DNA of 64,000 nt from Escherichia phage vB_EcoM_PHB13: sequence record MK573636; one strand, written 5' to 3'. Below the pieces are notes generated by a model. It saw only the letters and a program-made list of their open reading frames with translations. It searched no databases and was not told where the DNA came from. Positions 3,749 through 63,110 of this stretch are shown piece after piece (position 1 is the stretch's first letter; the number at the start of each line of letters is the position of its first letter). Both the position numbers and the translations under genes were made by a program.

Positions 3749-3916
3749 ATGACCAAATTAAAATGTGTTGCTGTAGATTTTGAGCTAGCTGATAGCTTTG
3801 TTGTCGGTGATGTATATGATGCTCGACATGATGGGACTTGCTACTACGTTGAGGATGAATACGGCGTAGAATGGGCTATTCTTCCTGATGATAAATGTTT
3901 TGAGGTTGTCGGATAA
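3749..3916 (+). CDS. small hypothetical protein (55 aa)
   Basis: ATG after GTGAGGA SD downstream of promoter at 3689; ORF-track start 3686 lies inside the promoter and is rejected. Confidence 0.5.
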   Translation: MTKLKCVAVDFELADSFVVGDVYDARHDGTCYYVEDEYGVEWAILPDDKCFEVVG

Positions 3917-4089
3917 TGGCTACTGTATGGTTATTGATTGCAATCAGCAATTCAATGTATAATTACGGAAATATGTCAAGCATTGAGTTTGCAACAAAGC
4001 AGGATTGCGTTAAAGCTCGCGAGGTTATCCGCGAAGACAATAAACGCTTTATGAATCTGTACTGTGTTGAAAAGCAGAAGGTGAACTAA
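3916..4089 (+). CDS. small hypothetical protein (57 aa), tandem paralog 1 (MATVWLL...)
   Basis: ORF below 60-aa track cutoff; N-terminus MATVWLLIA; SD GGATAA; paralogous to next ORF. Confidence 0.45.
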   Translation: MATVWLLIAISNSMYNYGNMSSIEFATKQDCVKAREVIREDNKRFMNLYCVEKQKVN

Positions 4090-4256
4090 TGGCTACAATA
4101 TGGTTATTGCTTTCCGTTAGCGTAGGCGTATATAATAAAGGAACTGTTACCAGCGTAGAGTTTTCATCACATCAAAATTGTTTTGAAGCTGTGCAGGAAT
4201 TGCAGCAGGATAGCGAAATAAACAGAAATACTAAGTTCTTTTGTGTTAAAAAGTGA
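4089..4256 (+). CDS. small hypothetical protein (55 aa), tandem paralog 2 (MATIWLL...)
   Basis: Start overlaps previous stop (TAATG); shares MATxWLL, SVEF and FCV/YCV motifs with preceding ORF. Confidence 0.45.
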   Translation: MATIWLLLSVSVGVYNKGTVTSVEFSSHQNCFEAVQELQQDSEINRNTKFFCVKK

Positions 4257-4271
4257 TAGTGAGGTGAATTA

Positions 4272-5435
4272 ATGAGCGTATTTAATCGTGAACATGTTGA
4301 TATTATGAATGAACCGATGTTTCTGGGTAGTGGGTTGGGTATCGCTCGCTATGATATTCAGCGTCATCAAGTATTTGAAGAATTAATTGAAAAATCTCTG
4401 TCATTTTTCTGGCGTCCAGAAGAAATTTCACTCGCAACCGACCGTATTCAATATCTTAATATGTGTGACGTTGAAAAGCGTTTCTTTACCGAAAACTTGA
4501 AGTATCAGACATTACTTGATTCTATTCAAGGTCGCGCACCGTCCGCAGCATTTGGTCCAATTGTATCTGATCCGACTCTCGATACATGGTTGCAAACATG
4601 GACATTCAGCGAAACGATTCATAGCCGAAGCTATACACACATTATGCGTAACTGTTTCATTGATCCGGCTAGTGAGTTCGACCAGATCATCGATAACCCT
4701 GCTATCATGAAGCGAGCGGAATCTATCGGGCAATATTATGATGATGTTCTGGTGAAAATCCGTGAATACGAGGACGCTAAAGAAAGTTTTAGTCGTTCTT
4801 CTGAAAATGAATTTGACCTTGATGCATATTCTGATAGCATTTCGTACGTGGAAGAAACTAAACGCAATCTGATGGACTCACTCTATCTGTGTATGCATTG
4901 CGTTAATGCACTGGAAGCAATCCGTTTTTATGTGTCCTTTGCATGTACTTTCAGCTTTGCCGAACGTGGTTTACTGGAAGGTAACGCGAAGATCATGAAA
5001 TTTATTGCGCGTGATGAACAACTTCACTTAAAAGGAACACAATACATTATTCGTCAATGGCAAACGGGGGCTGATGGTGATGAGTGGAAACAGATTGCGG
5101 AAGAACTTGAAGACGAAGCAACGAAAATCTTTCTGGATGTTGTCGAGCAAGAAAAAGAATGGGTAGATCACTTATTCGCAATGGGGGCAATTCCTGGCTT
5201 GTCACCGGAAATTCTGAAAACCTATGTAGAATACCTGGCAGATTCCCGTATGCGTGCTGCCGGACTGAAAAGCCCGTTTAGTGTTCGTCGTCATCCGTTA
5301 CCGTGGATGCGTAAATGGTTGAACTCTGACGAAGTACAGAATGCAGCGCAGGAAGTAGAGATTATGTATCTGGTATCTCAGGTTAATACCGATTTAACAG
5401 ACGACGACTACAACCGATTCGGGAAATATCTATGA
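4272..5435 (+). CDS. nrdB: ribonucleotide reductase class Ia small subunit
   Basis: 387 aa; di-iron ligand motifs (ETIHSRSYTHI, EAIRFYVSF...ERGLLEGN); uninterrupted (no intron). Confidence 0.92.
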   Translation: MSVFNREHVDIMNEPMFLGSGLGIARYDIQRHQVFEELIEKSLSFFWRPEEISLATDRIQYLNMCDVEKRFFTENLKYQTLLDSIQGRAPSAAFGPIVSDPTLDTWLQTWTFSETIHSRSYTHIMRNCFIDPASEFDQIIDNPAIMKRAESIGQYYDDVLVKIREYEDAKESFSRSSENEFDLDAYSDSISYVEETKRNLMDSLYLCMHCVNALEAIRFYVSFACTFSFAERGLLEGNAKIMKFIARDEQLHLKGTQYIIRQWQTGADGDEWKQIAEELEDEATKIFLDVVEQEKEWVDHLFAMGAIPGLSPEILKTYVEYLADSRMRAAGLKSPFSVRRHPLPWMRKWLNSDEVQNAAQEVEIMYLVSQVNTDLTDDDYNRFGKYL

Positions 5436-38548: not shown

Positions 38549-38576
38549 AGCCATCCTTCGGGGTGGCTTTTTTGTT
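38549..38576 (+). terminator. rho-independent terminator (AGCCATCC-TTCG-GGGTGGCT + T6)
   Basis: Read directly after hoc. Confidence 0.75.
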
Positions 38577-38936: not shown

Positions 38937-39211
38937 TGGACAAGAAAACAGCGTTAATGGTTTACATGCTACGCGAAGACCACGGTCTTAATTTTGTTGA
39001 TATTGCTAAAAAGATTGGCGGGATCAGCGGACAAGATGCGGCTAAGGCATGGTTGATGGTAAAAGATGCACGCGAGGCTTACGCCAGCCGTGAAAAGGTT
39101 GTTTATCGTAAACACCACATCAACAAAAAATTTAAAAATAAAGTTCAAAAACGTGTTGACAAGCCAAATAACACTGTTATAATGGACGCATTCAAACGGG
39201 CAATGTCCTGA
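38936..39211 (+). CDS. small basic protein (91 aa)
   Basis: Start taken at MDKKTALMVY (GTGATGG overlap with previous stop) rather than track 38828. Confidence 0.4.
   Translation: MDKKTALMVYMLREDHGLNFVDIAKKIGGISGQDAAKAWLMVKDAREAYASREKVVYRKHHINKKFKNKVQKRVDKPNNTVIMDAFKRAMS
39155..39183 (+). promoter_or_regulatory. sigma70-type promoter TTGACA-N17-TATAAT inside 3' end of preceding ORF
   Basis: Direct reading. Confidence 0.5.
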
Positions 39212-39257
39212 TTTGTAATTAATATTCTGAATAACTAATCAATAGAGGTGACTAATT

Positions 39258-39695
39258 ATGAAATTCCGTAAAAACCACGTAGCAATGAAAAAGGCAATGT
39301 TCGAAGCATTCAAAGCAGTTGATCAGGGCGGTGTTACTCTGATTGAGCAAATTAATGTTGATGTTTGGCAATCTCCGGCGATCACCTGCTCCCGTCTTGC
39401 TACGGCTGGACTTCTGAAAGTTCACAGCTCTACCGCATACGACGAAGCATTGCAAGTTATTAAGGCTTTTTCTGGAGACGTTACCAGCAAGTTGGTCTAT
39501 GAGAATAAAGGTGAAATTGCGGTTGCTCACGTAGGCAACAATATCCAGATGGAGATCAAGATTAAGGAAGGGTCTAAACGCAATCAGATGCTTGTTCGCT
39601 TCCAACCATACAAAACTAACGTAGTGCCGGATGATCTGATCATCTCTAAGAGTAATGTTACCATTCGCCGAAATCAGATCGTTATCAACAAATAA
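39258..39695 (+). CDS. hypothetical protein (145 aa)
   Basis: ORF with SD GAGGTGA; followed by terminator. Confidence 0.55.
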   Translation: MKFRKNHVAMKKAMFEAFKAVDQGGVTLIEQINVDVWQSPAITCSRLATAGLLKVHSSTAYDEALQVIKAFSGDVTSKLVYENKGEIAVAHVGNNIQMEIKIKEGSKRNQMLVRFQPYKTNVVPDDLIISKSNVTIRRNQIVINK

Positions 39696-39703
39696 TTAAC
39701 ATT

Positions 39704-39730
39704 AGCCGTCCTTCTGGGCGGCTTTTTTGT
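39704..39730 (+). terminator. rho-independent terminator (AGCCGTCC-TTCT-GGGCGGCT + T6)
   Basis: Same family as 38549 and 63084. Confidence 0.75.
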
Positions 39731-39781
39731 ATCTGTTATCAACATAATTTTAGTTTACATGTGCACAATATTAATACTGTT

Positions 39782-39808
39782 TGATTAAATTGTGACCAAA
39801 ACGAAGAA
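39782..39808. repeat. 27-nt imperfect direct repeat, copy 1 (TGATTAAATTGTGACCAAAACGAAGAA)
   Basis: Matches copy 2 at 24 of 27 positions, ~148 nt away, in 380-bp AT-rich non-coding region. Confidence 0.6.
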
Positions 39809-39929
39809 AGATCTTTAGAACATAGAAAATGTATCTTTGGTTAATTATTAATCACTACATATTGTAACACAAATGTTATACTCCGTAGGAGTTCGCGAAG
39901 CGATATCCTTTTGTGTAGTTTTTACATAT

Positions 39930-39956
39930 ATGATTAAATTATGAACAAAACGAAGA
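39930..39956. repeat. 27-nt imperfect direct repeat, copy 2 (TGATTAAATTATGAACAAAACGAAGAC)
   Basis: See copy 1. Confidence 0.6.
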
Positions 39957-40108
39957 CTTATCTTATAGAATAATAAAAATTTGTTTCGAACATTTATTAA
40001 TCAATTACTGGAAGTGTTTTAATGCTCGCTGTGCTCGCTTCCGCTACGCGGATACTTGTATTTGTTATTAACTTGTAGTATGATATTGCTTTCTATGGAG
40101 GAAATATT

Positions 40109-40696
40109 ATGTTTGACCAGTTACAAGATCTATTTGGAGTAAAACCACTTCGTAGATGTGCTCTTATAGGCTCTAGAAAAGCGCCTAACGACATTTTGAT
40201 AATGGCTAGTACCATTGGGAGGGTATTGTCAGAAAATCGCGTTGTAGCGCATTCTGGAGGGGCTTACGGTATGGACAATGCTTTCATGAAGTATTACGAC
40301 CCAGATTATAGAAAAATTTTCATTCCAAATTGGAAGTTTTACGATCATAAGCATAATGGTCGTGATGTGATTGCGTGGCAGACTCTAGAGCAAAAGAATC
40401 TGGCGATGGATGAATTAGAACACGTTTATGATAATCCTCGTTCTATACCGTTATACATGCAAAATCTGTTTTCTAGAAATGTTGCTCAAGTCTTAGGTGA
40501 GACACTTGATGATCCTGTAGATTGTGTGTTATTTTGGGCGAAAGAAGTTAATGGAATCGTTTCGGGAGGAACTCGAATTGCTGTCTATATTGCTCGTAGA
40601 CATGGGATACCATGTTTTAACTTATATCATCAAGAAAATAGATCCGCCGTCGAAAAAATATTGGGCGGATCTGACTTGTCTTGGTTAGATATTTAG
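40109..40696 (+). CDS. SLOG-superfamily (DprA/Smf- or LOG-like) Rossmann-fold protein
   Basis: ALIGSRKAP, AHSGGAYGMDNAF, NLFSRNVAQVLG, NGIVSGGTRIAVYIARRHGIPCF match DprA/LOG signatures from memory; convergent with gene 24. Confidence 0.45.
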   Translation: MFDQLQDLFGVKPLRRCALIGSRKAPNDILIMASTIGRVLSENRVVAHSGGAYGMDNAFMKYYDPDYRKIFIPNWKFYDHKHNGRDVIAWQTLEQKNLAMDELEHVYDNPRSIPLYMQNLFSRNVAQVLGETLDDPVDCVLFWAKEVNGIVSGGTRIAVYIARRHGIPCFNLYHQENRSAVEKILGGSDLSWLDI

Positions 40697-41938
40697 TTAA
40701 GCGTTGTCAATCTCAAGCGGTGGCAGTTCGATTCCTAAAATGTAGGACATTTCTGAACGTCCAGCCATTTTACCCCAATCGTCACCCTTGATGACCTGGT
40801 GTTCTTCCTGATCAACTTTTGATGTGTATGGGTTGACAGAGAGTGAATAACGATTCATAATAGCTACATGATGCTGGAAGCTATTAGGGTCAATTACGCT
40901 CTTATACGCGCCAGCGCCGTCGGCTTCTGTATATGGGGAGTAGAACAGAGAACCTACACTCTCCATATCACCGATCATGTGCTTACAACCAACGAGCATA
41001 TAATCGAAAGGTGTTGTCGTGTCTGCGTACACTTCCAGACCGCAACGTAGACGACCTTCGCTTAGAGCATTGTCGGTTTCTTCCATCCAACCGGTAGATT
41101 GCAGGAGGCCAACCACGCGAGAAGACGCCAAAACGTATGTACCAGCAAAGGAGGAAGTCCGCAACATTTGATTGCTCATCTCGCAAGCATAGCGGTAAAG
41201 TTCACGCGCTTGTGTTGGTGCATCCTGAACGCTAACGAGAGAAAGTACGCCATCAGGGGTGATCCCTTTAATTTTATAGCGAGATGATACAGTGATCAAC
41301 TTCTGAATAATATCTTTGTTGATCTCTTCGGAAGCAACAGTAGCCAGAAGATCAATTACAGAGTTTTCAGAGTTGATTTGGCTTGCCTCAAGATCCTGCA
41401 TTAATTCAGTGGTGAACGAGGTTTTCAGTTTACGAGAACCTACATTAACTTGCCACTTGTCAAACTGCATAGAGGTAGACGCAATTTCGGTGTTTTTATC
41501 TTCAAAGTATTCTACCGATGCACAATCGCTATAGAAACGAATTTTGTTTGTCATTACGCCTTTAAAGATCGCAGCTTCTGGAGTTGCGGCATCTTCACCG
41601 ACTGTACCAGCGGTCACAACTTCGTATACAACATCGCCTGATTTGAATAGTGCGCCTTCGTCATAAGATTTTTCTTTTGAAAACTCTTCAATCTCTGTGC
41701 GATCACCAACCGCTCCACCGTAGGTTGCAGCAGTTCGGAAAGTCATCTGACCATCATGATTAAGATAACGTAGGCCGTACAATGCAGATACTGGTTGATC
41801 CGTTGGTTGGATTGCTACCAGATCAGAGAAAATCAGGTTGTTTACCGCGCGAGTTAATGATAATAGTTGCGGTCGCGCTGTCTGGTTAGCTACTGAGGAA
41901 GTAGATTCCCGCAACAGTTCAGTAAAAATATGAGTCAT
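40697..41938 (-). CDS. gp24: head vertex protein
   Basis: Colinear with T4 gp24 (ELLRESTSS, KRYKIKGITPDG, GSLFYSPYTE); start set at MTHIF because track start 41986 runs over the late promoter. Confidence 0.9.
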   Translation of the reverse strand: MTHIFTELLRESTSSVANQTARPQLLSLTRAVNNLIFSDLVAIQPTDQPVSALYGLRYLNHDGQMTFRTAATYGGAVGDRTEIEEFSKEKSYDEGALFKSGDVVYEVVTAGTVGEDAATPEAAIFKGVMTNKIRFYSDCASVEYFEDKNTEIASTSMQFDKWQVNVGSRKLKTSFTTELMQDLEASQINSENSVIDLLATVASEEINKDIIQKLITVSSRYKIKGITPDGVLSLVSVQDAPTQARELYRYACEMSNQMLRTSSFAGTYVLASSRVVGLLQSTGWMEETDNALSEGRLRCGLEVYADTTTPFDYMLVGCKHMIGDMESVGSLFYSPYTEADGAGAYKSVIDPNSFQHHVAIMNRYSLSVNPYTSKVDQEEHQVIKGDDWGKMAGRSEMSYILGIELPPLEIDNA

Positions 41939-41975
41939 GTTTATGAATCCTGTATTTGCCTTAATGGATATATCA

Positions 41976-41983
41976 TATTTATA
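41976..41983 (-). promoter_or_regulatory. late promoter -10 box TATAAATA for gene 24
   Basis: Exact TATTTATA on + strand ~40 nt upstream of gp24 ATG. Confidence 0.65.
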
Positions 41984-42675
41984 CAAAAAGAAAAAGGAAT
42001 CCGAAGGATTCCAAAAATAAACTTACTTCTTCCTAGAAACATTATCAACGCTACGGTTAACTTTGTTTACCATATTAATTGCATGATCAGAACGAATAAT
42101 TGCATAAGCTAATGCTAACATCAATTCGTTGTATTCCTTACGAGTCATAACATAGCTGTTTTCTTTCTTACTCATGCATTCCTCCTTATGGAGAATTTTG
42201 GGTTAATTCAGGGAACAGCGTACCAAAACCAAAAATTATCGCTAGCGTCACGCTGGAATGCCATAACAAGGTCGACATACACCAGATCTGTATATCTACC
42301 AAATCTATCCGACCCAATATCAACATGAACGCTCATTTCATTCATTGGTCCTTTGCCATGCAGTTACTACGAAAATTGGTGAAATTGTTTGTTGTGTTTT
42401 AATAAATCCAGCATCAAAAGCAATTACACATATCATAGCCACCGGATTTAGGCTCGCGACCCCCGATGTTCTGCATCTTCCTGTCTTTGTTGTGTGTATC
42501 TATTTTTCGCTCCCAATAGAATATAGGCTTGCAACCTTATTTATAACGGGATATAATACGCAAAAAGGGAAGACCCTTTCGAGTCTTCCCTTTGGAATTA
42601 ACACTTTACACTGTCATAAGGTTTATGATAAGTCGGGTATTGCACCCGACCGGAGTTTTTCAGGAATGGCTTATA

Positions 42676-63073: not shown

Positions 63074-63083
63074 AAATACATAC

Positions 63084-63110
63084 AAAAAAGCCGCCCACAA
63101 GGACGGCTTA
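63084..63110 (-). terminator. rho-independent terminator (AGCCGTCC-TTGT-GGGCGGCT + T7) after methyltransferase gene
   Basis: Same hairpin family as + strand 38549 and 39704. Confidence 0.75.

Follow-up and report, generated by a model that had tools for sequence, protein, structure and literature searches.

The 413-nt ORF-free gap between a 145-aa ORF and a DprA-like gene of an RB49-like (Krischvirus) coliphage harbours two tandem copies of an AT-rich palindromic unit with a promoter-like core, accompanied by small GC-rich hairpins. We tentatively read it as two autonomous non-coding promoter-hairpin cassettes yielding short structured RNAs, an explanation that we regard as plausible rather than probable. 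The cassette is apparently undescribed, lying outside the Rfam families, the canonical early promoters of the PeSL (promoter-early stem-loop) type and the published promoter lists for RB49. In the proposed scheme, host RNA polymerase would initiate at the centre of each palindrome, transcribe the 3' arm together with the mini-hairpins and stop or pause at hairpins A/B (unit 1) or at hairpin T2 (unit 2), giving structured RNAs of ~60-95 nt. T2 would insulate the DprA-like gene, which would itself be served by the weak promoter P3. The polymerase may need a helper, because the -35 elements are poor.

Layout of the gap

The gap extends from 39696 to 40108 and has a GC content of 31% (Table 1). 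Within the whole stretch of DNA that was analysed (64 kb, referred to as the window) it forms the minimum of duplex stability at the 100-, 200- and 400-bp scales, ~3.3-3.7 SD from the mean. The AT-rich non-coding region of the original prediction is indeed present. The gap had also been called the largest ORF-free interval of the window, which holds when ORFs of at least 50 or 60 aa are counted but fails at cut-offs of 80 or 100 aa. Its supposed position next to the gene 24 block proved incorrect, the DprA-like gene separating the two. The neighbouring genes encode the DprA-like protein, DUF2774 and proteins of unknown function, and searches of Pfam and PHROGs found no Rep-like, initiator or DNA-binding domain in the proteins that flank the gap. 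For the 145-aa ORF (phrog_15652) both collections were uninformative and a PDB fold search with its AlphaFold model (pLDDT 80.5) gave no significant match; on these grounds it was rejected as a candidate DNA-binding or initiator protein.

Table 1 Features in and around the gap, in window coordinates.
Feature	Position	Strand	Remark
145-aa ORF	39258-39695	+	Stop codon is the left edge of the gap
T0, intrinsic terminator of the 145-aa ORF, AGCCGTCC-TTCT-GGGCGGCT and T run	39704-39730	+	Terminator scan
Unit 1, AT-rich imperfect palindrome	39782-39854	+	Direct repeat and inverted repeat; fold -14.2 kcal/mol, z -1.9
Unit 1, 5' arm	39782-39800	+	Followed by core box TGACCAAAACGAAGAAAGATCTT
Unit 1, -10-like hexamer TAGAAC	39816-39821	+	TAGAAT or TATAAT in other copies
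Unit 1, 3' arm	39836-39854	+	Contains near-palindrome GGTTAAT-T-ATTAATC
Extended -10-like element TGTTATACT	39874-39882	+	Just 5' of hairpin A
Mini-hairpin A, CTCC-GTA-GGAG	39881-39891	+	Compensatory stem changes
Mini-hairpin B, TCGC-GAA-GCGA	39893-39903	+	GCGAAGC motif; T-rich stretch to 39921
Unit 2, second AT-rich palindrome	39931-40003	+	Core box TGAACAAAACGAAGACTTATCTTA
Best sigma-70-like match in unit 2, TGAACA-18-TAGAAT	39942-39971	+	Consensus scan, 9/12
GC tract GCTCGCTGTGCTCGCT	40024-40039	+	Counterparts in relatives
T2, terminator-like hairpin TCCGC-TAC-GCGGA and T-rich tail	40040-40069	+	Terminator scan
P3, putative weak sigma-70-like promoter of the DprA-like gene, TTGTAT-17-TATGAT	40056-40084	+	Overlaps the T2 tail
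Shine-Dalgarno GGAGG and ATG of the DprA-like gene	40097-40111	+	Ribosome-binding site annotated in the Makalu_001 record
DprA-like ORF	40109-40696	+	ATG is the right edge of the gap
Gene 24	40697-41986	-	Beyond the DprA-like gene

The two direct repeats of the original prediction, given there as 27 nt long and ~148 nt apart, are present as TGATTAAATTGTGACCAAAACGAAGA (39782-39807) and TGATTAAATTATGAACAAAACGAAGA (39931-39956), with a corrected length of 26 nt and a start-to-start spacing of 149. They differ at 2 positions, and no third copy occurs in the window with up to 3 mismatches allowed (0 chance matches expected). The similarity reaches beyond the repeats, to 34 nt at 85% and ~73 nt at 76% (39782-39854 versus 39931-40003); the repeats are the conserved core box of two cassette copies, each lying within an AT-rich imperfect palindrome of ~73 nt whose centre bears a -10-like hexamer. 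Complementarity of the 5' and 3' arms is kept across sequences, the unit 1 stem pair 39796/39840 being C-G, T.G or T-A among 11 Krischvirus sequences, and the anatomy of unit 1 recurs in 6 diverged lineages. A promoter alone leaves this arm complementarity unexplained, since transcription from the loop would give an RNA without the 5' arm. Comparison of the wobble pairs and of the plus and minus folds of the AT-rich palindrome revealed no clear strand asymmetry; the folding energies are similar and the palindrome therefore gives no strand signal.

Three elements make up the promoter-like core, which takes in the 5' half and the centre of the palindrome: the A/T block TGATTAAAT on the upstream side, the conserved box (TGAnCAAAACGAAGA...ATCTT) and, at a fixed distance, a -10-like TAGAAT or TATAAT. 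Downstream of the palindrome come one or two GC mini-hairpins, mostly with GNA triloops, and a T-rich tail. The ATCT(N)TATA/TAGAAT block is asymmetric, and its distance from the 6-mer ahead of AAA(A)CG is constant at 17-18 nt. Within the core, conservation is lowest in the -35 hexamers, and a "spacer" box as strongly conserved as this one is not usual in sigma-70 promoters. The best match in unit 2 has the counterparts ATGATC-17-TATAAT in lineage L023 and TTGAAC-17-TATAAT in L026. The extended -10-like element is represented by TGTTAAAAT in L004 and by TGTTAATAAT in L022 and L036; it is missing in L023, and L025 has a similar TGATATACT only after the second unit.

Several results speak against strong promoters in the gap. 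The hexamer of unit 1 is degenerate, since it lacks the final T, the -35s are poor, and a matrix derived from the 18 canonical early promoters of the phage (15-33 bits) reached at most 0.5 bits on either strand of the gap. The best match of this matrix on the + strand was P3, at -1.9 bits far below the canonical promoters. The early-promoter predictions of Nolan et al. for RB49 include none at the gap, and the late promoter TATAAATA is absent from both of its strands. A canonical early promoter in the gap was consequently rejected on the basis of the own-promoter matrix and the published predictions, and the core motif was rejected as a general promoter class, not being above chance elsewhere in the 64 kb. 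Likewise, a small repeat-encoded peptide (M-x-K-T/R-K/H...) was discarded: it has no Shine-Dalgarno sequence, its start varies between ATG, GTG, TTG and ATA, and a 1-nt indel (CAAAACG versus CAAACG) puts it out of frame although the DNA motif is preserved.

Hairpins, conservation and further copies

GEC-3S is among the records that list T0 as a terminator, and TransTerm calls it in RB49 (97821-97838). T0-like hairpins were also seen at 38549-38575 (+) and 63080-63108 (-). Between the two units, the stem of hairpin A appears among the lineages as CTCC/GGAG, ATCC/GGAT, AATCC/GGATT or ATGCC/GGCAT and that of hairpin B as TCGC/GCGA, TTGC/GCAA or ATGC/GCAT. Taken together, 4 of the 8 pairs of the two hairpins show compensatory change, and their covariation score was reached by 0 of 500 shuffles. 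With 4-bp stems and interrupted T tails both are poor terminators by the usual rule. The 8-bp palindrome TTCGCGAA of the original prediction was found at 39892-39899 and the GC-rich tract GCTCGCTGTGCTCGCTTCCGCTACGCGG at 40024-40051; what had escaped notice is that the former is part of the GCGAAGC-type mini-hairpin B and that the latter ends in a terminator-like hairpin, T2.

The GC tract has the counterparts GCTCGCTTTGCTCGC (L004, L036) and GCTCACTGCGTTCGC (L023, L025) and is represented by the hairpin GCGAGC-TTTT-GCTCGC in L022. Across 7 lineages the stem of T2 shows compensatory change at 4 of its 6 pairs; 92.9% of the cells are paired, and 0 of 500 shuffles reached the observed covariation score. 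The T-rich tails that follow T2 are present in all lineages and on the + strand only. With its GC stem-loop, U-rich tail and compensatory changes, T2 thus looks like an intrinsic terminator. An equivalent of P3 (TTGNNT-16/17-TATNNT) follows T2 in L004, L022, L023, L025 and L036, and in L026 the -10 (TATAGT) is kept with a poor -35. A scan of the gap against Rfam 15 at permissive thresholds gave best scores of 14.7-21.6 bits, mostly over T0, versus gathering scores of 38-111.

Conservation of the repeats in related phages was confirmed: the layout is kept in six diverged lineages outside Krischvirus proper, in the order T0, two or three AT-rich units, GC hairpins, T2, P3 and DprA-like gene. The DprA-like proteins of these relatives are 86, 70, 59, 58 and 50% identical and the 145-aa ORFs 88 to 55%. 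Three units are found in L022 and two in the other lineages from which the whole gap was recovered. Within Krischvirus, 10.7% of the gap columns are variable versus 17% of third codon positions, and the 11 Krischvirus sequences share three near-invariant blocks of 43 to 155 nt each: 39797-39839 and 39870-39912 are invariant, and 39946-40100 has only ~5 variable columns. As judged from these comparisons, the gap is under selection within Krischvirus and its layout is kept far beyond neutral expectation. In some lineages the copies are closer within than between genomes (the units of L004 are 89% alike over 104 nt), and in L036 the two units differ and are not homogenised. The cassette and the 145-aa ORF are found together, and this only in the Krischvirus-like lineage. 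In Bragavirus, Jiaodavirus and a Providencia phage the DprA-like gene adjoins gene 24 and the cassette is absent, so that a tie of the cassette to this gene was rejected; more distant T4-like phages carry rnlB at the position of the gap.

Every Krischvirus genome contains two extra copies of the cassette, one between the tail-fibre genes gp35 and gp36 and one beside gp2, which makes four copies at three loci (gene 24/hoc/uvsW, tail fibres gp35/36 and gp2), all of them intergenic and in late-gene modules. Neither these copies nor the one found in an E. coli prophage had been noticed in the original prediction. The gp35/gp36 copy starts ~8 nt past the upstream terminator and is followed by the own late promoter of gp36, TATAAATA; because there is no room for an upstream promoter, any transcript must begin inside the unit or be read-through. 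Both extra copies carry TAGAAT and the hairpins GCC-TAC-GGC and TCGC-GAA-GCGA. At the gp2 copy the homology among Krischvirus genomes breaks right after hairpin B, where a few phages have an HNH homing endonuclease gene.

Over 76 nt the prophage homolog shows 78-82% identity (E ~3e-9), and 53 of 5426 E. coli genomes carry it. Behind it come ~250 nt of GNA mini-hairpins and then an intrinsic terminator, a region whose + strand folds with -106.7 kcal/mol (z -5.4). The homolog itself lies ~120 nt 5' of a GTGTAGGTTT repeat array resembling an iteron origin. With the prophage gap as query, an Rfam scan gave no family match and a plasmid search no match; a pattern scan of GTDB genomes yielded a single match, probably by chance.

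Possible functions of the cassettes

The conserved layout, the covarying GC hairpins and the promoter- and terminator-like signals of the + strand agree in outline with the regulatory or non-coding RNA locus that had been predicted. These signals are directional. Whereas the anatomy, its conservation, the hairpin covariation, the several copies and the prophage homolog are seen in the sequences, the transcription of the cassettes, the points where transcripts would start and stop and a role for the RNAs are inferred. A search of the literature found no transcript data for any Krischvirus. An anti-leader small RNA, in which the 3' arm would pair with the conserved CGAAACGA leader of early mRNAs, was not adopted, as the pairing is marginal at best (p ~0.02-0.03 for the gp35/36 and gp2 copies and none for the two units of the window). 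No small-RNA target or seed was identified.

The main rival, conceivable though on balance unlikely, holds that the cassettes are R-loop replication origins of the T4 type (oriF/oriG-like). The promoter would fire into an AT-rich unwinding element, the annealed transcript would prime leading-strand synthesis, and the GNA-triloop mini-hairpins would fold in the displaced non-template strand and help to hold the bubble open. The minimal T4 origins oriF and oriG measure ~100 bp (Kreuzer & Brister 2010, PMC3016281), and T4 origins lie in late-gene regions near switches of the transcribed strand, oriE using an early promoter (PMC3016281). RB49-type phages lack MotA (PMC1524935) and their origins, if any, therefore cannot use MotA promoters. 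The least stable duplex of the 64 kb and the restriction to three loci in late-gene modules are consistent with such origins, although these loci are only roughly comparable to T4 oriF, oriG and oriE and match their positions only to within several kb. Furthermore, when both strands are considered, 27 of 30 triloops have the form GNA, 19 of them on the + (non-template) strand, an enrichment that is overstated because orthologous hairpins are non-independent samples. C-GNA-G triloops are, reportedly from the work of Hirao and colleagues, exceptionally stable in DNA. The closeness of the prophage cassette to an iteron-like array points the same way, whereas the T-rich tails of T2 and the hairpins are typical of RNA terminators. 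Nothing relevant on origin mapping in Krischvirus or RB49 was found in the searched literature, and an origin need not be conserved, because T4-type phages can replicate by recombination alone. If this reading held, the cassette family would represent the early replication origins of Krischvirus, T4-like phages that have no MotA: the promoter box TGAnCAAAACGAAGA-N7-TAGAAT, either newly recognised or independent of an activator, would fire into the unwinding element, C-GNA-G DNA mini-hairpins of the displaced strand would stabilise the open state, and a related module would serve beside the iteron array of the E. coli prophage. As a second reading, the copies would form a four-copy family of short phage RNAs, present both in a lytic phage of the T4-like kind and in a temperate prophage.

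An origin of the iteron type, as in the original prediction, with the direct repeats binding an initiator, is highly improbable. The 26-27-nt repeats do lie in an AT-rich gene-free region, but there are only two copies (three in L022) ~150 bp apart, with neither an array nor helical phasing, and every copy is embedded in a larger palindrome; no initiator-like gene was recognised nearby. Alternatively, the gap could be a long structured leader or intercistronic spacer, transcribed through T0 from the strong promoter at 39156 (TTGACA-16-TATAAT, 5' of the 145-aa ORF), whose AT-rich hairpins and GC hairpins would act as sites of RNA processing (e.g. by RNase III) or attenuation and set the timing or level of DprA-like expression. 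This is unlikely, although 39156 is the only canonical early promoter nearby and P3 is weak. The imperfect stems, 20-25 bp long and interrupted by internal loops, look like RNase III substrates, both palindrome arms would occur together only in read-through RNA, the change at 39796/39840 passes through a wobble intermediate, and the element stands 5' of the DprA-like gene in all lineages. Against it, T0 is a strong terminator, and more distant T4-like phages carry the DprA-like gene without such a leader. Since copies also precede unrelated genes (gp36 with its late promoter, the homing endonuclease) and occur in a prophage, the cassette is not specific to the DprA-like gene.

That the palindromes are operators or binding sites, for a phage protein such as the 145-aa ORF product or for a host DNA-binding protein, is improbable. 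On this view, the site TG(A/G)TTAAT-N-ATTAA(T/C)CA and the core box would recur as direct and inverted copies. Between the window and L025, where the DprA-like protein is 59% identical, the 17-nt near-palindrome GGTTAATTATTAATCAC does not differ, the L023 version is a perfect 8-1-8 palindrome, and a near-identical site lies in the prophage gap (L040, 4993-5009). The within-genome likeness of unit copies, as in L004, and the co-occurrence with the 145-aa ORF would also fit. On the other hand, no DNA-binding domain was found in the neighbouring proteins, the 145-aa model has no significant PDB match, and copies are not always homogenised (L036). Inspection by eye for the consensus sites of Fur, ArgR, PurR, CRP, LexA, IHF, DnaA and alternative sigma factors gave no convincing match. 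Quite improbable, finally, is a non-functional relic, either a duplicated promoter/terminator cassette that recombination left behind to decay or the former place of a lost gene such as rnlB. The presence of rnlB at this position in more distant T4-like phages, the degenerate -10 of unit 1 and the recombination between repeated regulatory cassettes documented in RB49/phi1 (PMC2839356) would suit it. Yet lineages down to 50% protein identity retain both units, although direct repeats are prone to deletion, and near-invariant blocks, compensatory changes in three hairpins, extra copies and a prophage homolog also speak against it.

RB49-type phages do without MotA and middle promoters, and their replication origins and any small RNAs are not described in the searched literature. 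A conserved, multi-copy and structured cassette outside the known promoter classes, confined to late-gene modules and shared with a prophage, narrows the search for origins, small RNAs or a new kind of promoter to a few concrete sites, in a widely isolated genus that has served in phage therapy. It would also broaden the PeSL concept, that of portable promoter/hairpin cassettes, by a second sequence class. Should it prove to be no more than a weak promoter plus attenuators that serve accessory genes, the gain would be a modest one in annotation.

Comparison with known systems

Iteron origins (lambda ori, plasmid RK6 gamma, the T4 oriE repeats) share with the gap direct repeats in an AT-rich non-coding region, but consist of arrays of short phased repeats, in contrast to two widely spaced copies without an initiator gene. 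When at least three short (~12-22 bp), regularly spaced direct repeats and an adjacent initiator gene were looked for, the gap had neither; instead, it holds two copies 149 bp apart in 73-nt palindromes. T4 oriF (uvsY) and oriG (34) are ~100-bp modules with a good -10, a non-sigma-70 -35 and a downstream A+T-rich element (PMC3016281), which the cassettes may resemble in having a promoter-like core followed by the AT-rich 3' arm. A location in late genes, few copies per genome and the easiest-melting DNA (in the window, the gap) are common traits; the cassette, however, has no MotA box, the phage has no MotA, and the positions are only roughly parallel. To our knowledge, palindromic arms and GC mini-hairpins are not features of T4 oriF or oriG. 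T0 and T2 resemble enterobacterial and phage terminators in their GC stems followed by T-rich tails. A unit with its hairpins has in outline the promoter, the 60-95 nt, the hairpin and the U-rich tail of a small-RNA gene, and the prophage version ends in a clear terminator. Differences from both are the lack of an Rfam match and the 4-bp stems and interrupted T tails of hairpins A/B.

The closest parallel in construction is the PeSL, in which a promoter and a stem-loop occupy the interval from a stop codon to the following Shine-Dalgarno sequence (Arbiol et al. 2010, PMC2839356). PeSLs occur in RB49/phi1 and in further phages of the T4-like kind (PMC2839356; Comeau et al. 2014, PMC4122927). 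The cassette likewise is intergenic, between a stop codon or terminator and the next Shine-Dalgarno sequence, it is repeated within the genome, and one copy (gp2) marks the edge of a homing-endonuclease insertion; T2 and P3 before the DprA-like gene form a stem-loop directly followed by a promoter. The intergenic or insertion-junction position of a PeSL is thus present, whereas the sigma-70 consensus (TTGACA-17-TATAAT) is lacking in the gap, with at most 0.5 bits versus 15-33 for the 18 PeSL-type promoters of the window. A stem-loop does overlap the promoter-like core, but in place of the usual PeSL stem, GGGG...CCCC, it is a 73-nt AT-rich palindrome which spans the whole core and is followed by GNA-triloop mini-hairpins. 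The four copies lie at three loci in conserved late-gene modules and not in hyperplastic regions, and the cassette is absent from the published list of RB49 early promoters and unmentioned in the text of the PeSL paper. The cassette and the PeSL are related in the way they are built, though they belong to separate sequence classes.

Organization of the gap

The window belongs to a Krischvirus, a T4-type coliphage (RB49/phi1/JSE-like), and its positions 39000-41000 align with the minus strand of 58 of 58 Krischvirus records at 95-99% identity. Along the + strand, hoc is followed by three small ORFs, the 145-aa ORF, the gap (39696-40108) and the DprA-like ORF. As originally predicted, the gap is the longest interval in the window devoid of ORFs when the minimum ORF length is set to 50 or 60 aa; it also is the least stable DNA duplex in the entire 64 kb at 100, 200 and 400 bp. 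The TTCGCGAA palindrome and the GC tract of the original prediction were both located, and its direct repeats were recovered as two copies (39782-39807 and 39931-39956), which are, however, 26 instead of 27 nt long and 149 instead of about 148 nt apart. A third copy with up to three mismatches was not found in the window, where chance expectation is also none, and the reading of the repeats as an iteron-type origin is unsupported.

The repeat similarity reaches ~73 nt at 76% identity, the repeat itself representing the 5' arm and subsequent core box of an AT-rich imperfect palindrome, hereafter unit. In each unit an AT-rich centre is enclosed by paired outer arms, TGATTAA/TTAATCA, and paired inner arms. 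Unit and following GC mini-hairpins are termed cassette (see table). Besides, a terminator hairpin, AGCC(G/A)TCCTTC(T/G)GGG(C/T)GGCTTTTTT, occurs at three window sites as a repeated terminator module.

Table. Features of the gap, its neighbourhood and the prophage locus
Feature	Position	Strand	Remarks
gp24.3/DUF2774		+	one of the three small ORFs between hoc and 145-aa ORF
145-aa ORF	39258-39695	+	RB49ORF165c; phrog_15652; function unassigned
T0	39704-39730	+	strong terminator of upstream 145-aa ORF
Unit 1	39782-39854	+	AT-rich imperfect palindrome
Mini-hairpin A	39881-39891	+	CTCC-GTA-GGAG
Mini-hairpin B	39893-39903	+	TCGC-GAA-GCGA, then T-rich stretch
Unit 2	39931-40003	+	
GC tract	40024-40039	+	
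T2	40040-40052	+	TCCGC-TAC-GCGGA with T-rich tail; flagged terminator-like in scan
P3	40056-40084	+	weak sigma-70-like promoter, TTGTAT-17-TATGAT; then Shine-Dalgarno and ATG
DprA-like ORF, 195 aa	40109-40696	+	RB49ORF164c; abuts end of gene 24
Gene 24	40697-41986	minus	
Repeated terminator hairpin	38549-38575; 39704-39730; 63080-63108	+; +; -	
Prophage gene-free gap, 1.27 kb	L040 (E. coli prophage locus) 3885-5151		E. coli H2 chromosome NZ_CP028733.1, 2553383-2554649

Conservation and covariation

Among 11 Krischvirus sequences 10.7% of the gap columns were variable, compared to 17% of third and 1-3.6% of first and second codon positions, and the blocks 39797-39839, 39870-39912 and 39946-40100 were near-invariant. 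The unit 1 stem pair 39796/39840 occurs as C-G, T.G and T-A. At 39792, 39796, 39945 and 40022 the window phage differs from all 10 other sequences; three of these four positions belong to the -35-like segments of both core boxes, which read GTGACC and ATGAAC in the window phage and ATGACT and ATGATC in the others.

The same locus was recovered in six diverged lineages by way of the DprA-like protein and 145-aa ORF. Most of these lineages are represented by short metagenomic contigs, L036 by one of 170 kb, and the comparison covers this locus. Identity to the DprA-like protein was 86% (L004), 70% (L022/L037), 59% (L025), 58% (L023) and 50% (L026), and to the 145-aa ORF 88% (L036). All six exhibit a gene-free gap of 330-570 nt, and the conservation across related phages at issue in the original prediction was borne out by two AT-rich units per gap, three in L022, with GC hairpins after the units. 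The T2-type hairpin with its T-rich tail is present in all six, as is a TTGNNT-16/17-TATNNT promoter-like site before the DprA-like gene, which is weaker in L026. The relatives' hairpins are stronger than those of the window (z of -3.1 and -4.9 for L023, -6.0 for L026, -2.6 and -3.1 for L022).

Alignment of the units by anchoring on CAAA(A)CG unveiled a shared plan: T(G/T)G(A/G)TTAAA, a few nt, (A/T/G)TGAnC-AAA(A)CG and ...ATCT(N), then TATAAT or TAGAAT exactly 17-18 nt after the 6-mer, an AT-rich centre and a 3' arm complementing the 5' arm and ending TG(A/G)TTAAT-N-ATTAA(T/C)CAC. Between phages, the tails behind unit 1 and those behind unit 2 are orthologous. The AT-rich parts show a higher similarity within than between genomes in some lineages, such as L004 with 89% over 104 nt, but not in L036.

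For T2, 92.9% of the cells were paired, both sides had changed in four of six pairs and the score was reached by 0 of 500 shuffles; the signal collapsed when the 3' partners were slid by 1-3 columns. Hairpins A and B together gave 87.5% paired cells and compensatory changes in four of eight pairs, again at 0 of 500 shuffles. GNA triloops on either strand account for 27 of 30 triloops over all copies seen (19 on the + strand), orthologous hairpins being non-independent samples.

Several further observations concern the relatives. In L004 an extra ~170 nt (2280-2440) separate P3 from the start codon of the DprA-like gene and include a 19-nt inverted repeat besides the repeats CTAAAATCAATTCT / CTAAAATCGCTTCT. 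The Logan contigs L038, L039, L022 and L037 stop inside or just past the repeat region, an outcome to be expected if short-read assembly fails at tandem units. The DprA-like gene of more distant T4-like phages (Bragavirus, Jiaodavirus and a Providencia phage; L033-L035) likewise adjoins gene 24. What precedes it there is RNA ligase 2 (rnlB), in some cases separated from it by a small ORF, and a long gap is absent; the Krischvirus-like lineage instead carries the 145-aa ORF and cassette array.

Copies at other loci

An exact-pattern scan located two more cassette copies per Krischvirus genome, both outside the window. The copy between gp35 and gp36 (ECD7 ~151.4-152.1 kb; 57 of 58 records) begins ~8 nt past the T run of the upstream terminator and is followed by the next gene's late promoter TATAAATA, without space for any other promoter. 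The other adjoins gp2, ~63 kb into the GEC-3S record, and there Krischvirus homology stops just past hairpin B. Both carry TAGAAT and the hairpins GCC-TAC-GGC and TCGC-GAA/AAA-GCGA, and in both the inner stem, AACCAAAACGAA / TTTGTTTCGGTT, is 12 bp long. In a few Krischvirus genomes (the gp2-side locus L054 on IMG/VR contig 3300045988_033703, phages phiS and AV108) an HNH homing endonuclease gene directly follows hairpin B of the gp2 copy.

A 76-nt homolog of the unit (78-82% identity, E about 3e-9) was found in an E. coli prophage, occurring in 53 of 5426 complete E. coli genomes and ~25 IMG/VR prophage contigs. It opens a gap within an accessory-gene block between the small and large terminase genes, whose flanking genes obtained no family assignment. 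The unit is followed by ~250 nt dense in GNA mini-hairpins, then by a clear terminator (ACGGC-TAC-GCCGT and T run), an iteron-like array of about 8-9 GTGTAGGTTT repeats and, further on, a TGATTAATTATTAATC palindrome. From unit to terminator the fold reaches -106.7 kcal/mol (z -5.4 on the + strand, -3.3 on the other). Two CAAAAATTTTGATAG repeats also lie in this gap, of which a stretch of ~350 nt is highly structured.

Candidate functions of the cassette

The recurring design is the previous gene's terminator, the unit, mini-hairpins and the next gene's own promoter. Its recurrence ahead of unrelated genes, as well as in a prophage, points to a portable, self-contained module and speaks against a leader dedicated to the DprA-like gene. 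All functional statements are inferred from sequence; the searched literature yielded no transcript, promoter-activity or replication data on any Krischvirus. The asymmetric, position-fixed -10-like element and the T-rich tails on the + strand would fit a small transcription unit, and together with the recurrent design and the gp35/gp36 spacing they favour promoter-hairpin cassettes that would make short structured RNAs. Against this, the -35 is poor, the -10 of unit 1 is degenerate, the supposed spacer is unusually conserved, and the arm complementarity is conserved though a promoter does not need it. In view of these features, the promoter may require a factor, or the units may act as a supercoil-sensitive cruciform or an R-loop replication origin. 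The last would parallel the T4 paradigm of a promoter plus an AT-rich unwinding element, with origins in late-gene regions (PMC3016281), and would also draw on the exceptionally unstable duplex of the gap, the presence of the cassette at three loci and the DNA-type triloops.

An Rfam search of the gap returned no useful match, and the core motif was not found as a general signal in the window. The window holds ~18 near-consensus PeSL-type early promoters (3689-25154, 38585 and 39156, all +) of the form AAAAAGTTG-TTGACA-GGGG..CCCC-TATAAT-ACACACAT-CGAAACGA. With a matrix built from these, nothing in the gap exceeded 0.5 bits, compared to 15-33 bits for the promoters themselves. The RB49 early promoters listed by Nolan et al. 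include none in the gap; the closest of them, Pe:98401, is the promoter at window ~39156. Common to the PeSL-type promoters is a transcribed leader, CAT(A)C(C)GAAACGA(A/G), immediately preceding the Shine-Dalgarno sequence and resembling the cassette core box CAAAACGAAGA. The cassettes are relatives of the PeSLs (PMC2839356) in construction, yet a distinct class.
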